Part shown: positions 42,727-47,078 of the stretch, one piece after another
Position numbering within the stretch: position 1 is the stretch's first letter
How the letters are laid out: each line of letters starts with the position of its first letter
Origin: Escherichia coli
GTDB lineage: Bacteria > Pseudomonadota > Gammaproteobacteria > Enterobacterales > Enterobacteriaceae
Assembly: GCF_003018255.1 (NCBI RefSeq)
Contig: NZ_CP027440.1
Length of the DNA: 64,000 nucleotides
Reading direction: 5' to 3' (one strand)
The notes under the pieces: generated by a model
The model's input: the letters and a program-made list of their open reading frames with translations, nothing else
Database searches by the model: none
What the model was told of the DNA's origin: nothing
Made by a program: the position numbers and the translations under genes

Positions 42727-42850
42727 CATCTCTCTGTGCGCAGTACCTCCTGTATTATTGTGGTGGCGGTCGATATTCGCACTGGCAAAAAAACGTGCTT
42801 GAATATCTGTTGAAACCCTTTAACAAAGCACAGGAGGCGTTGCGCGAACG

Positions 42851-43258
42851 ATGAACATTAGCGATGTAGCAAAAATTACCGGCCTGACCAGCAAAGCCAT
42901 TCGCTTCTATGAAGAGAAGGGGCTGGTGACGCCGCCGATGCGCAGCGAAAACGGTTATCGCACCTACACGCAGCAGCATCTCAACGAACTGACCTTACTG
43001 CGCCAGGCACGCCAGGTGGGCTTTAACCTGGAGGAGAGCGGCGAACTGGTGAATCTGTTTAACGATCCGCAGCGTCACAGCGCCGACGTCAAACGTCGTA
43101 CGCTGGAGAAAGTGGCGGAGATCGAACAGCATATCGAAGAACTGCAATCCATGCGTAACCAGCTGCTGGCGCTGGCGAATGCCTGCCCCGGTGATGACAG
43201 CGCCGACTGCCCGATTATCGAAAATCTCTCCGGCTGCTGTCATCATCGGGCGGGGTGA
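42851..43258 (+). CDS. cueR: MerR-family Cu(I)-responsive regulator CueR
   Basis: 135-aa ORF; [29 protein letters not shown]-terminal metal-binding Cys pair (CPGDDSADC). Confidence 0.97.
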
Positions 43259-44013
43259 TTAAGGCTTGCGAAAATAGTCGTCCATTATTTTCGTCAGCTC
43301 CGGACGTTCCCCGTCATCATTGATGGCAAAATCCAGAAAAAAAGCATCTGCTTGCGGCGTTCGGTTTTGCGCCATCAACCGGAAGGTGAGGGGGCCTGAC
43401 CAGGTTTCGGATGGGCTGATGTGCTTATCAGGGCCGAAACTCTCCCATGCGTTGGGCGGTAATGTTTTGCACGCGGTGAGTTTTGGTATGTGGTATTGCA
43501 GCTCTGTTTTGTGCAGACATTCCCCGCCAGGAAATACCAGGGTTTGTTGCTCATCATTAAAATGGGTTGCCGTGCTGAGCACCAGTGTTTTGAGCGGTCG
43601 CCCTTCCAGCGCGGCGGCAGTAGCCTTATGGTGTCCGTCGAGCAGAACGCAGAGATAGGAATCAGGGAGATACCAGGCCAGAGCGCGGGCGATTCCAGTT
43701 TTCGAGAGCAGACAAAAACCGGGCGGCTCCCTGTTCACCCTCCGCAAAACCGCTGTAGACAAATTCCGCACAGGTAGGGCAACCAGCCTCGGACCAGAAA
43801 CGTATTAACGGGACATCCTTGCCAGCAGAGCGAATGGATAAGACCGTGCGAGTGCGGATCGTAAATCACACATTGACGCAGAAATCCTTTCCCGGACTTC
43901 ACCGAAAAAATGACGCCCGCAGCGGTATTTTTCAGCAGACGTACTTCAGGTTTTCGAAAGGGGAAAAAGCATGGCCACTCCTTAGCCAAAATTTCAGTTC
44001 CCTGAACTGTGCC
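43259..44013 (-). pseudogene. Decayed gene of unknown function (ParB/Srx-like DGHHK motif); longest piece is a 170-aa GTG-initiated ORF 43259-43771
   Basis: Three overlapping minus-strand frames are open in turn (44013-43735, about 43872-43669, 43771-43259), none with a convincing ATG/SD; last frame contains YLCVLLDGHHKATAAALEG. Confidence 0.45.
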
Positions 44014-44060: not shown

Positions 44061-44267
44061 TTACCCATTAATCCCCGTTTGTACCGAAAGAATATGTTGC
44101 AAACTTTCTACCATAATGCGCCCCGACTGAAATAAGCCTTCCTGGATTTCATTGTTAACATTCACAGCGTGAACCAGGGAGGCTAATAACACCACTTGCA
44201 AGAAGGCAAAAATAAACGCACCGATAATCATAATATGCGTCAGGGGGATTTTCCTTTGCTCCTTCAT
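44061..44267 (-). CDS. Small single-pass membrane protein, unknown function
   Basis: 68-aa ORF; start ATG overlaps upstream lipoprotein stop (ATGA, 44264-44267); one hydrophobic helix IMIIGAFIFAFLQVVLLASLVHAV. Confidence 0.6.
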   Translation of the reverse strand: MKEQRKIPLTHIMIIGAFIFAFLQVVLLASLVHAVNVNNEIQEGLFQSGRIMVESLQHILSVQTGING

Positions 44268-44686
44268 TTTAAATAACCCACAAACTGGCCTTCTTTCATT
44301 AAGGCGACTTTTCCTGTGTGATGATAAACAATGACATTATACAGACCCGACTGATAAACCGTGGCATCGGCATTATCTTCATCTATGGCACATAATGAAT
44401 CATTGAGATAAGCAAAATTCTTACTACTCATTCTAAAGGTCATGCCAAATCCTTTATAAATGGCTTTTTTTGCCGCCTGGGCATGTTGTGCGGCTTCTGC
44501 ATTTTTAAATGCCTGCGCTTCAGAAGCACTTAAAATAGCCGTCTGGCGCTGCTGTTCTGCGAGATAACAGGTGTCATGGCTGACGCCCTGCGCCTGACAA
44601 TCTGCGATGCGGGAAGCGGGTGAGCTACAGCCAGCCAGTAATATAACCGCCAGCAGGGAAAAGGATTTAATGGAGCTATTCATCAT
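44264..44686 (-). CDS. Lipoprotein, unknown function
   Basis: 140-aa ORF; signal peptide plus lipobox LLAGC|SS; AAGG SD; Ala/Gln-rich helix then beta-rich C-terminus. Confidence 0.75.
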   Translation of the reverse strand: MMNSSIKSFSLLAVILLAGCSSPASRIADCQAQGVSHDTCYLAEQQRQTAILSASEAQAFKNAEAAQHAQAAKKAIYKGFGMTFRMSSKNFAYLNDSLCAIDEDNADATVYQSGLYNVIVYHHTGKVALMKEGQFVGYLK

Positions 44687-44771
44687 TGTTAACCTTAAAT
44701 AATGTGCGAATTAATGAAGAGGTGAAACCCGGCAAGCTTCCTTGCTCTTATTTATATTGAGGATTGAAATA

Positions 44772-45788
44772 TTAGAACGAATATCCTACGCCGACACCTG
44801 CGCCGAAATCAGATTGCGTATCCGCAGAAATACCGGCTTTAAGTACCGTATGCGTTCCGGCATTAAAAGATGTTCCGACAGACACCGCAGATTCACCGTT
44901 GAAGGTTCCCGCTCCCGCTGACACCATCATCACGTCACCGGTTTTAACCTGTGGTTGTGAGGCGATAGCGATGGCAGATGCAGTTCCCGCATTGGCTTCT
45001 TTACGGTTGTCCTCAACTTCGTTTTTCAGCGAACTGTAATGGTTATTGAGCGTGTTAATTTGTTGGCTGTTATCTGCGACCCGTTTTTGCGTGTTGCTTA
45101 ACTGTTGCTGCGTTTGTGCGGAATCTTGTCTCAGACTTTCAATTTGCTCATGTGCCTGGACAGACTTCTGCGCCAGACTTTGCATTTGTTTATCGTATTG
45201 AGCCCTTTCTTTTTGCTGTTGTGCTGCCACATCGGTTGTCAGTGCATTCATTTTCTGCCCTTGTTCCGTGGTAGTGCGCTGATTAGCCTCATTTTGAGCC
45301 GCCAGTCTGGCATTAATCATCTCCTGATAATGCGCAGTATTTTGCGTATCTCCAGTCGCGGCGAGCGTTTTTTGTGTGGCTACGATCTGCGCCTGTTGCT
45401 CTGTAATTTGCGTTTGCTGGGCATCAGTTACCGCAGACTGTCGGGCGTTGATCATGCTCTGATAACGGGCAGGTGTCTGTGTATCACCTGTAGCGGCAAC
45501 GGTTTTTTGTCCTGCGTCAGGATCTGTCTGGACAGTGGGAGTCTGAGTGGTATCAGGTGTTTCAGAAGGGATGTAGTGATGTTCAGTCAAATAGGTATAC
45601 GCAGCGGGGCTGTTGTCTGTGCGTTCTAAAAAGCGGGTAATCTTCTGCTCAATCTCCGATTGCGACATGCCAGAGTTAATGGCTGAAAGCTCTGTTGCCG
45701 CCGCTTCAATGGTATCACCAGCTAAAACAACAGGGCTGGATGTTGCTGAAATTATGAGTGCCAGTAAAGCTACGTTTACAGTTTTCAT
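44772..45788 (-). CDS. Short 'headless' trimeric autotransporter adhesin-like protein (coiled-coil stalk + YadA-type anchor)
   Basis: 338-aa ORF; signal peptide MKTVNVALLALIISATSSPVVLA; Gln-rich heptad stalk; C-terminus ...VMMVSAGAGTFNGESAVSVGTSFNAGTHTVLKAGISADTQSDFGAGVGVGYSF = four beta-strands ending aromatic, typical YadA anchor. Confidence 0.8.
   Translation of the reverse strand: MKTVNVALLALIISATSSPVVLAGDTIEAAATELSAINSGMSQSEIEQKITRFLERTDNSPAAYTYLTEHHYIPSETPDTTQTPTVQTDPDAGQKTVAATGDTQTPARYQSMINARQSAVTDAQQTQITEQQAQIVATQKTLAATGDTQNTAHYQEMINARLAAQNEANQRTTTEQGQKMNALTTDVAAQQQKERAQYDKQMQSLAQKSVQAHEQIESLRQDSAQTQQQLSNTQKRVADNSQQINTLNNHYSSLKNEVEDNRKEANAGTASAIAIASQPQVKTGDVMMVSAGAGTFNGESAVSVGTSFNAGTHTVLKAGISADTQSDFGAGVGVGYSF
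45240..45509 (-). repeat. Diverged 135-bp (45-aa) tandem duplication inside the adhesin stalk
   Basis: QKTVAATGDTQTPARYQSMINARQSA... vs QKTLAATGDTQNTAHYQEMINARLAA...; DNA landmark GTATC at 45346 and 45481 (135 bp apart). Confidence 0.8.
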
Positions 45789-45821
45789 TCATTTTCTCTT
45801 GTTCAAAATAAGTCGCATTAA

Positions 45822-45838
45822 TGTTTCTATAAGAAACA
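45822..45838. promoter_or_regulatory. Inverted repeat TGTTTCT-ATA-AGAAACA (candidate operator)
   Basis: 7-bp arms; lies just downstream of predicted minus-strand promoter (-35 TTGCAA 45868-45873, -10 AATAAT 45845-45850) of the adhesin operon. Confidence 0.45.
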
Positions 45839-45947
45839 AATAATATTATTTTAAGAAATAAACTGCGTTGCAATTTAATCGAAATCTACGCCGCCATTTG
45901 TGTGATGTAAAGCGCATTTTTGTCTGGTGTAAGCGTAAACACCACCA

Positions 45948-45972
45948 ATAAGAAACAAAAAATGTTTCTTAT
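45948..45972. promoter_or_regulatory. Perfect inverted repeat ATAAGAAACA-AAAAA-TGTTTCTTAT (candidate operator)
   Basis: 10-bp perfect arms, same core heptamer as 45822-45838 but with opposite arm order. Confidence 0.5.
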
Positions 45973-46154
45973 ATAAATAAAATCGAAAATCATTTTGTGC
46001 TCTTTCAATGTAAAAAAGAGTAAAGACTTGTTTTGATAAGCGAAATAAATTCTGTTTCTGGACTAAACGTGAAGCGGTTCCTGATGTGTGCTAAAATGCG
46101 TTTCTTTGATAAATCTCAATTTTTAAGAGGTTTACGCCAGGCAGGAAAATTTAA

Positions 46155-46517
46155 ATGAATGAATTTGAGAAGATTTTTAATGAAATGAATCTGGACCGGG
46201 CATTGTTACCGATCCTTTTTCGTTCGAACCGGTCGACAGTGTGGAAGTATTTAAGCGGCGATAGTACGGCTCCTGCCTCTGCCATGTCGCTGATCATGCT
46301 GTTGCAGTTGATCCAGAAACGAAACCCCGATCTGTTAGCCGAATGGTTAACGCTTTCTGATTTCACCATTCCGCCAGAAGTTTACCTGGACCAACCTGAT
46401 TACTGGAAAGGGTGGGTGTATACCCAACACAAGGTCAATAAAAACGTCCTGGAATATCTAAAAAAACACTATCCGGATGAAGACCAAAAAAGTATGGGTA
46501 AAGGCCGGGAAGAGTAA
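46155..46517 (+). CDS. Small HTH protein (MqsA/XRE-like N-terminal domain + unknown C-terminal domain), candidate local regulator
   Basis: 120-aa ORF, AGGAAA SD; RSNRSTVWKYLSGDSTAPASAMSLIMLLQLIQKRNPDLLAEWL parallels the ...RYEKG...P....KLL..LDKHPELL pattern of MqsA-type HTH domains; extended -10 TGCTAAAAT at 46089-46097. Confidence 0.65.
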   Translation: MNEFEKIFNEMNLDRALLPILFRSNRSTVWKYLSGDSTAPASAMSLIMLLQLIQKRNPDLLAEWLTLSDFTIPPEVYLDQPDYWKGWVYTQHKVNKNVLEYLKKHYPDEDQKSMGKGREE

Positions 46518-46539
46518 TTTTGCCTCTACTCGGCTATAT

Positions 46540-46625
46540 GCCGGATGCGGCGCAAGCGCCTTATCTGGCCTACGATTCGGGCATATTTTGTAGGCATGAT
46601 AAGACGCGCCAGCGTCGCATCAGGC
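46540..46625. repeat. BIME: two inverted REP units
   Basis: GCCGGATGCGGCGCAAGCGCCTTATCTGGCCTAC (46540-46573) and GTAGGCATGATAAGACGCGCCAGCGTCGCATCAGGC (46590-46625); second unit overlaps the ybbJ stop. Confidence 0.88.
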
Positions 46626-47078
46626 GATGACCGCACGGATAATCAGCGTTATCCCTTCTATCGCAATCACCTCAACATGCGTACCTGCACTGAGATCCTC
46701 GCTGGCGCTGACAGGCCATGAACTGTCACCGACGCGCATATGACCACGCCCGTTGACCAGCGGAGATTCCAGAACAAAACGTCGGCCAATCAACTGCTGC
46801 CCGCGCTGGTTTAAATGACTGTCGCTGTGCTTTTGTTCGCGCACCCGCCGCGACAACCATTTCCACCACAGCCAGGCGGCGAGCAGCGTCAGGACGGCAA
46901 ACATTACCCCTTGCCACTCCCAACCCAGCGGCAGCAACCAGACCACCAGACCGGTAATCACCGCTGCCACGCCGCTCCACAACAGATAACCATTGCCGCC
47001 CAACATCTCGGCTGCCAGCAGCAAACCGCCGAGACTTAGCCAGAAAATATGTGGATGAACGACCATTAACTCCATCAT
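46620..47078 (-). CDS. ybbJ: NfeD-family membrane protein YbbJ
   Basis: 152-aa ORF, three TMs plus C-terminal OB-like domain; overlaps qmcA by 4 nt. Confidence 0.92.

Follow-up and report, generated by a model that had tools for sequence, protein, structure and literature searches.

The question raised by this locus is whether an autotransporter, a lipoprotein and a small membrane protein that are encoded side by side in Escherichia coli belong to one surface system. The three genes lie on the minus strand of a 64,000-nucleotide stretch of contig NZ_CP027440.1 (assembly GCF_003018255.1), hereafter the window, and had been pointed out in a preliminary description made from the letters alone. 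They encode a head-less trimeric autotransporter (TAA) of 338 aa (z0639/gmrA, 44772..45788), a lipoprotein of 140 aa (z0638, 44264..44686) and a bitopic membrane protein of 68 aa with a predicted N-in orientation (44061..44267). When the open reading frames (ORFs) were re-read from the sequence, all the features were found where that description had placed them; RefSeq annotates the three genes, and comparison with other Escherichia species shows that they are real genes under purifying selection. With a confidence somewhat better than even, we interpret the locus as a mobile surface cassette, in which a short TAA without a head is combined with an outer-membrane lipoprotein that belongs to a new family and serves as its dedicated partner, with small proteins peculiar to individual lineages and with a helix-turn-helix (HTH)-like local regulator.

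We investigated the 338-aa protein by profile and sequence comparison. Residues 279-338 (44775..44954, minus strand), which form four β-strands ending in GYSF, matched the Pfam YadA_anchor model (PF03895) over its full length (positions 1-60/60), with an E-value of 1.1e-11 and a score of 45 bits for a cutoff of 22.7. Sequence matches in the PDB were limited to the membrane anchors of AtaA and Hia (E 1.5e-6 to 6e-5), AtaA being the best, and the RefSeq product name is 'YadA family autotransporter adhesin'. The C-terminal end of the protein reads GAGVGVGYSF. At the opposite end, inspection revealed a signal peptide of the Sec type, MKTVNVALLALIISATSSPVVLA/GD (residues 1-23, 45720..45788, minus strand; the slash marks the cleavage site, which follows a VLA motif), that is conserved in the orthologues of E. 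ruysiae, E. whittamii and the cryptic Escherichia clade. The region in between is rich in glutamine (19% of residues 91-265) and presents a hydrophobic periodicity of 3.5/7 residues in 181-265, the hydrophobic a/d positions reaching the anchor helix. A repeat of about 45 aa is present in two copies, 63% identical across 38 aa; it is visible at the protein level alone, and no DNA-level tandem repeat was found in the gene. The distal end presents a helical segment of about 50 aa followed by a Pro/Thr/Gln linker, and no Pfam head, neck, stalk or ESPR family was detected in the protein even at E<=1. The proposal of a head-less YadA-type TAA bearing a Sec signal peptide and a stalk of Gln-rich heptads is therefore borne out, the anchor match being significant. 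The protein would be exported by Sec and would form a homotrimer in the outer membrane through its YadA-type anchor, displaying a short fibre made of the N-terminal helical domain, the linker and the Gln-rich coiled coil, with no classical head.

The variation among alleles is typical of an exposed fibre. In Escherichia, the anchor and the proximal stalk are nearly invariant, and it is in the distal passenger that coiled-coil blocks or repeats are inserted or deleted, giving proteins of 338-579 aa. Outside Escherichia, the TAAs partnered with this lipoprotein share 14-34% identity, and none of 40 lipoprotein-partner TAAs matches a Pfam head, stalk or ESPR family at E<=0.001. A short coiled-coil passenger with mosaic repeat variation and a YadA-type anchor is also found in the Eib proteins, DsrA and UspA-type proteins. 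The present TAA, for its part, is not prophage-borne, and no sequence match was found to the EibD structure or to any other PDB passenger. Additionally, 9 of the 40 lipoprotein-linked TAAs (L039:5113-5814 and L042:5140-5832 among them) contain collagen-type G-x-y repeats in the passenger (Pfam Collagen, best E=1.5e-23), which are unusual in the stalk of a TAA.

The second gene encodes a lipoprotein whose lipobox, recognised by inspection, is ILLAG/C20 (the slash marks the cleavage site), with Cys20 followed by Ser-Ser. Because of this Ser at position +2, the lipoprotein is predicted to be sorted to the outer membrane. After the lipobox, the mature part comprises a helical hairpin with two cysteines (C30, C40), an Ala/Gln-rich helix of variable length and a conserved small all-β C-terminal domain; the predicted model shows helices and an 8-strand β-domain. 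The two cysteines belong to a nearly invariant motif, SR(M/I)A(D/E)C-x3-G(V/I)S-x-(D/N)(T/A)CY-x-AEQ. The ratio of nonsynonymous to synonymous substitution (dN/dS) was 0.02-0.07 against other Escherichia species. No Pfam or NCBIfam family was found for this protein, and when 1.84 billion representative proteins were searched exhaustively with its profile, only 144 matches were obtained. The family is thus small, modular and envelope-associated. Side occurrences of its C-terminal β-domain are found in fusion with the TolA C-terminal domain or with DUF4156 (P0148, P0147), and alone with its own signal peptide on Citrobacter plasmids (H25), which points to a reusable periplasmic module. A relationship to TraV was rejected: the NCBIfam match (E=0.003, 18 bits for a cutoff of 44.8) is noise, because it covers only the signal peptide and the Cys motif. 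Membership of MliC/PliC was unsupported beyond a generic barrel similarity, by HMM and by Foldseek.

The β-domain also bears on a reading in which the lipoprotein is itself exposed at the surface and displayed alongside the TAA, either as a co-adhesin or as cargo, in the manner of the small eight-stranded-barrel surface lipoproteins of Neisseria. The structural likeness to these proteins is weak and generic, Foldseek yielding nothing significant, and no Slam-like translocon was seen in any neighbourhood. We therefore give this reading very little credence.

The association between the TAA and the lipoprotein was surveyed from both sides. Starting from the lipoprotein, with one genome per species, 38 of 80 species-level loci contained a YadA-anchor ORF directly upstream on the same strand, the spacing between the two genes being about 47-225 bp in most loci. 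The linked pairs are distributed over at least 12 genera of Enterobacteriaceae, Yersiniaceae and Hafniaceae (Escherichia, Rahnella, Yersinia, Enterobacter, Lelliottia, Buttiauxella, Hafnia, Ewingella, Phytobacter and Pseudocitrobacter among them), in unrelated genomic contexts. Starting from the TAA, an anchor profile retrieved 72 metagenome loci, 65 of which had at least 650 bp of downstream sequence, and a lipoprotein-family ORF was present at no more than 700 bp downstream in 58 of these 65 (89%) loci of this anchor type, in a test whose pattern was derived from partner TAAs and whose loci were not de-replicated. The co-localisation on which the preliminary proposal depended was thus found in both directions. 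The adjacency has been kept through many relocations and a complete turnover of the passenger. The distances between lipoproteins correlate with those between anchors (Mantel r=0.57, none of 2000 permutations being as high), a correlation which is one of co-inheritance, not of contact, and which could come from shared descent alone.

In the window, the two genes are separated by a spacer of 85 bp (44687..44771, minus strand) without a convincing terminator. No minus-strand terminator-like site was found in it and its folding energy is no better than that of shuffled sequences (z=0.4); an attenuator or terminator at this place was rejected.

These data suggest that the presumably co-transcribed lipoprotein would be a dedicated periplasmic partner of this anchor subfamily, most likely docking under or next to the trimeric barrel and stabilising or assisting the TAA. 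Besides the construction of the TAA-side test and the limited meaning of the distance correlation, several observations weigh against such a partnership. Approximately 40% of the full-length lipoprotein homologues are orphans with no TAA within 6 kb, including the whole Scandinavium/Klebsiella/Raoultella/Citrobacter clade. In Serratia fonticola and S. silvae (L043:5303-6641 and L046:5297-6707), the locus comprises a homologue of the divergent 120-aa protein described below, the lipoprotein and a small gene but lacks a TAA, which indicates that lipoprotein and regulator can persist without the autotransporter. Many of the 144 profile matches consist of the N-terminal domain alone or the C-terminal domain alone, a few others being fusions with TolA_C or DUF4156. 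The same observations, the orphans, the Serratia loci and the modular domains, favour the main rival explanation, in which the lipoprotein, either alone or together with the small protein, serves the envelope independently and is co-transferred and co-regulated under the 120-aa regulator with no physical or biogenesis link to the TAA; the SadB paralogue YajI is indeed such a lipoprotein without a TAA. What argues against an independent factor is the 89% downstream occupancy for this anchor subfamily, the survival of the adjacency through relocation and passenger turnover, the correlated divergence of lipoprotein and anchor, the tight spacing without a terminator and the lack of Foldseek or HMM support for MliC membership. 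The orphans notwithstanding, the TAA-linked lipoproteins are scattered across most deep branches of the lipoprotein tree. We consider the independent factor a possible explanation, clearly less probable than a dedicated partner. As a side observation, both Serratia loci adjoin a qmcA-like gene, as the E. coli locus does.

Two lipoprotein or periplasmic partners of TAAs offer a comparison. In the AtaA-TpgA system of Acinetobacter sp. Tol 5, the partner gene lies downstream of taa, as here, and 91% of the TpgA-like genes are located downstream of taa (PMC12523085), to be compared with the 58/65 loci found in this work. The gene order is therefore not new, only the protein family is: the distinct arrangement put forward in the preliminary description stands for the lipoprotein family and falls for the downstream position of the partner gene, already known in taa-tpgA (PMC12523085). 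TpgA is a periplasmic partner, as the z0638 lipoprotein would be. TpgA presents a BamE-like α-α-β-β-β N-terminal domain, often with an OmpA-type peptidoglycan-binding domain, whereas z0638 has no Pfam SmpA_OmlA or OmpA match and no BamE or TpgA structural match; in addition the TAAs partnered here are short and head-less, unlike those of the AtaA-TpgA system. In SadB-SadA of Salmonella and E. coli (PMC3953254), as in the present locus, the gene of an enterobacterial TAA shares its operon with that of a small lipoprotein. Both lipoproteins consist of an N-terminal helical segment followed by a β-domain, and both have relatives unlinked to a TAA, YajI for SadB and the orphan clade here. In contrast, SadB is encoded upstream, resides in the inner membrane (Asp at +2), has a MATH-like fold and serves a very long partner with heads (PMC3953254), whereas the z0638 gene lies downstream of its TAA gene, and its product carries Ser at +2 and resembles SadB in neither sequence nor fold. 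Homology of the lipoprotein to SadB or TpgA was therefore rejected on Pfam, sequence and structural grounds, which agrees with the distinction from SadB drawn at the outset. The role of the lipoprotein may be functionally analogous to that of TpgA or SadB, with an unrelated fold. A January 2026 survey of TAA neighbourhoods reported no helpers beyond TpgA and SadB; it covered only TAAs with a YadA head, and the present pair is missing from it for that reason.

The locus has, in addition, a published identity. It is O-island 29 of enterohaemorrhagic E. coli (EHEC) O157:H7 (z0638-z0640). Among the published lambda-Red primers, the arms used to delete gmrA correspond to 44734-44771 and 45786-45827 and exactly bracket the 338-aa ORF, the z0638 arm matches 44684-44725 (lipoprotein gene) and the z0640 arm matches 46117-46155 (120-aa gene), with 0-2 mismatches to the window. 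Therefore, the TAA is GmrA; the allele of an O157:H7 strain is 95% identical at the protein level. In 2018, Yang et al. described gmrA (z0639) as a transcriptional activator of fliA, z0638 and z0640 being there proteins of unknown function, and made no mention of a signal peptide, a YadA anchor, a lipobox or the 68-aa gene (PMC5826968). As late as 2024, reviews still list GmrA among the transcription factors, and the searched literature contains no link of GmrA to autotransporters and no mention of the RefSeq accessions. As a locus, the cassette is thus already known as O-island 29, and its TAA gene as GmrA; as far as the searched literature shows, it is the conserved pairing of TAA and lipoprotein that is undescribed.

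According to that study, deletion of gmrA or of the whole island reduced motility, flagella and the expression of fliA, fliC and motA, gmrA alone complemented the defect, the loss of motility and flagella held in eight strains, and K-12 carrying plasmid-borne gmrA was more motile; electrophoretic mobility shift assays (EMSA) and chromatin immunoprecipitation with quantitative PCR (ChIP-qPCR) were positive on the fliA promoter, with negative flhDC and rpoS controls (PMC5826968). The z0638 and z0640 mutants had normal motility, and published RNA-seq showed z0638, gmrA and z0640 expressed in Dulbecco's modified Eagle medium (DMEM) and jointly switched off on HeLa cells (PMC5826968). Two of the published results weigh against the surface-cassette reading: adherence to HeLa and Caco-2 cells was unchanged by the island deletion, and the sole biochemistry available for the 338-aa protein assigns it a cytoplasmic DNA-binding role (PMC5826968).

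Taken at face value, these data would make GmrA a cytoplasmic transcriptional activator binding the fliA promoter, its likeness to an anchor being irrelevant and the downstream genes unrelated passengers. This assignment conflicts with the sequence, in which both a Sec signal peptide and a significant match to the YadA anchor are present. No DNA-binding family was found in it at threshold in Pfam or NCBIfam, the sub-threshold matches being coiled-coil noise (SMC, E=2e-5, 22.5 bits for a cutoff of 567; TMF_DNA_bd, E=0.17, 12.3 bits for a cutoff of 35). A His tag placed before a signal peptide and a FLAG epitope placed after the last strand are both expected to disturb export and barrel assembly. 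Of the two forms used in the DNA-binding assays, one was the full-length protein with an N-terminal His tag before the signal peptide and the other carried 3xFLAG directly after the terminal GYSF strand, and the 'putative DNA-binding domain' had been taken from a search of conserved domains (CDD) (PMC5826968), for which the coiled-coil noise is a plausible source. The DNA-binding assays were in this way made on non-native tagged forms, and the published localisation-relevant data were probably obtained with mislocalised protein. Moreover, the orthologues in other genera show features that are typical of surface fibres, namely collagen repeats and Pro-rich linkers, and the distal part of GmrA is hypervariable among strains. 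We consider a cytoplasmic activator very improbable and the assignment in the literature probably a misassignment. The genetic motility phenotype itself looks solid, and it is more probably an indirect effect through the envelope than the result of DNA binding by the 338-aa protein.

The reproducibility of this phenotype suggests another reading, in which the cassette is an envelope-to-gene-expression module: transcription, for example of flagellar genes, would respond to the assembly of the TAA with its lipoprotein and small membrane protein. It is suggested as well by an HTH-like pre-sequence in the TAA precursors of Rahnella and Ewingella. In these genera and their relatives, the cassette TAA begins with a conserved segment of about 39 aa, MKAQxTERNxQIIxAYxAGNxNKxELARYFGVSASTxRR, located directly before the signal-peptide core and covering the first ~45 codons of the ORF (e.g. 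L018:4734-4870; also L023, L025, L028, L030, L031, L035, L037, L044, L053 and L055). The segment gives weak Pfam matches to HTH_7, HTH_23 and CENP-B_N and is under purifying selection, with a ratio of nonsynonymous to synonymous polymorphism (pN/pS) of 0.23; it differs from the classical ESPR motif and is absent from the E. coli protein. Cleavage of the signal peptide could release this pre-sequence in the cytoplasm as a secretion-coupled regulator. We regard the module as a whole as a long shot.

We return to the third gene of the surface cassette. The 68-aa protein, with a KR-rich N-terminus and one hydrophobic helix, starts at the ATG of ...TTAAAATGAAGG, which overlaps the TGA of the lipoprotein gene (ATGA). 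The lipoprotein gene 85 bp downstream of the TAA gene on the same strand, followed by a translationally coupled single-helix protein, is thus confirmed as it had been described. The dN/dS of the 68-aa gene is 0.12-0.41 against other Escherichia species, within a range of 0.12-0.49. The gene, with its ATGA overlap, is kept only in Escherichia, Enterobacteriaceae sp. G50 and Pseudocitrobacter, and no small gene follows the lipoprotein gene in Enterobacter, Lelliottia and Yersinia. The three-part system proposed in the preliminary description is therefore lineage-specific: it holds for the first three groups and is not general, other genera having a different third gene or none. The 68-aa inner-membrane protein would be a lineage-specific, translationally coupled add-on. 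In Rahnella, Serratia and their relatives, the third position is occupied by a soluble protein of about 70-80 aa (MKKHHTDQFKHLPPEQQ...), non-homologous to the 68-aa protein and without a family match (L023:6408-6629, L043:6426-6641, L046:6492-6707 and other Rahnella/Serratia loci). Its gene overlaps the lipoprotein stop by 4 bp in Rahnella and starts 5 bp downstream of it in Serratia.

The gene set initially described was incomplete, since it missed a divergent gene that is more widely conserved than the 68-aa gene. This gene (z0640, 46155..46517, plus strand) encodes an HTH-like protein of 120 aa, and its homologues are located divergently upstream of the TAA gene in 25 loci and directly upstream of the lipoprotein gene in two Serratia species. 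Its dN/dS is 0.03-0.11. The N-terminal half shows an Xre/MqsA-like HTH pattern, with a Pfam MqsA_antitoxin match on residues 6-63 that is below threshold (E=0.082). The AlphaFold2 model, with a pLDDT of 55, is too weak for a fold search; its helices 15-21 and 26-33 fit an HTH. The 120-aa protein is a likely local regulator. Between the two divergent genes lies an AT-rich region of 366 bp (45789..46154, 30.6% GC) that presumably carries both promoters. Weak sigma-70-like sites were found on its minus strand at 45911-45883 and 45873-45845; they are not above chance.

The whole insert measures 3.3 kb and occupies the E. coli chromosome between cueR and ybbJ, with glsA-ybaT-cueR on one side and ybbJ-qmcA-fetAB on the other. 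Its G+C content is 45.8%, compared with 52-55% in the flanks, and O-island 29 would be a horizontally acquired surface-protein cassette. A candidate end of the operon was found by consensus scan about 70 bp past the 68-aa gene, where a terminator-like hairpin is followed by a T-run (43972..43988, minus strand), the number of terminator-like sites in the region being not above that of shuffled sequences. Among known intergenic RNAs, only sub-threshold Rfam naRNA4/REP matches were obtained, outside the operon. These fall at 46503-46662, between the 120-aa gene and ybbJ, where repeats of the repetitive extragenic palindromic (REP) and bacterial interspersed mosaic element (BIME) type give sub-threshold naRNA4 matches on both strands; owing to these repeats, a 3.5-kb query of the locus matches a median of 8 places per E. 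coli genome.

Lipoprotein and small gene were found together in 1416 of 5426 complete E. coli genomes, and the TAA gene in 1381 of them. The island is thus present in about 26% of the complete genomes, always on the chromosome and nearly always in single copy. Carriers include O157:H7 as well as extraintestinal pathogenic (ExPEC) and avian pathogenic (APEC) strains, and an island is also found at this chromosomal position in E. ruysiae, E. whittamii and the cryptic Escherichia clade. A variant with an extra pseudogene accounts for 162 of the 5426 genomes. In the window, which contains this island variant, a frameshifted gene remnant lies at 43259-43938 (minus strand); in Escherichia sp. E1V33 and E. 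whittamii, the gene follows the operon in an intact form of 409 aa (L006 and L007, 6709-7938). This gene, which matches nothing in Pfam or PADLOC, is missing from the islands of O157:H7 and E. ruysiae. Between ybaT and cueR, the RefSeq annotation also contains a fragment of a frameshifted gene, 98 bp long (about 42757-42854, plus strand). In O157:H7 and E. ruysiae, a type I secretion ATP-binding cassette (ABC)/HlyD pair of a repeats-in-toxin (RTX) locus is located directly upstream of cueR, and the 98-bp fragment accordingly looks like a deletion scar of that locus.

In E. coli MSB2_1A (L090:4001-5783), the TAA allele is annotated from an internal TTG, without signal peptide and N-terminal domain, and a gap of 733 bp lies upstream of it; in some E. 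coli strains the TAA may thus be N-terminally disrupted while the lipoprotein, small and 120-aa genes are intact. Pseudocitrobacter faecalis (L003:801-5707) carries tandem TAA genes, of 633 and 608 aa, before the lipoprotein and the small membrane protein, and its island ends with a large serine recombinase gene, consistent with cassette mobility. Copies on plasmids are rare, the TAA-lipoprotein pair being found on one IncF plasmid, in Enterobacter sp. 638. A phage origin was rejected, tblastn giving no match in 50,697 phage records, and so was a role in anti-phage defence, PADLOC yielding coiled-coil noise alone (DndD/JetC).

The regulator candidate of the island, z0640, has been overlooked, and if GmrA is an outer-membrane protein, the mechanism of its effect on motility needs to be re-examined. 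With a TAA of 338 aa, a lipoprotein of 140 aa and the genetics of E. coli, the system is experimentally easy. The TAA-specific partner proteins described so far are SadB and TpgA only, and the lipoprotein may represent a third kind of dedicated autotransporter partner. If this is true, a third, unrelated partner family serving short head-less TAAs across Enterobacterales would widen the view of how type Vc autotransporters are assembled and anchored.

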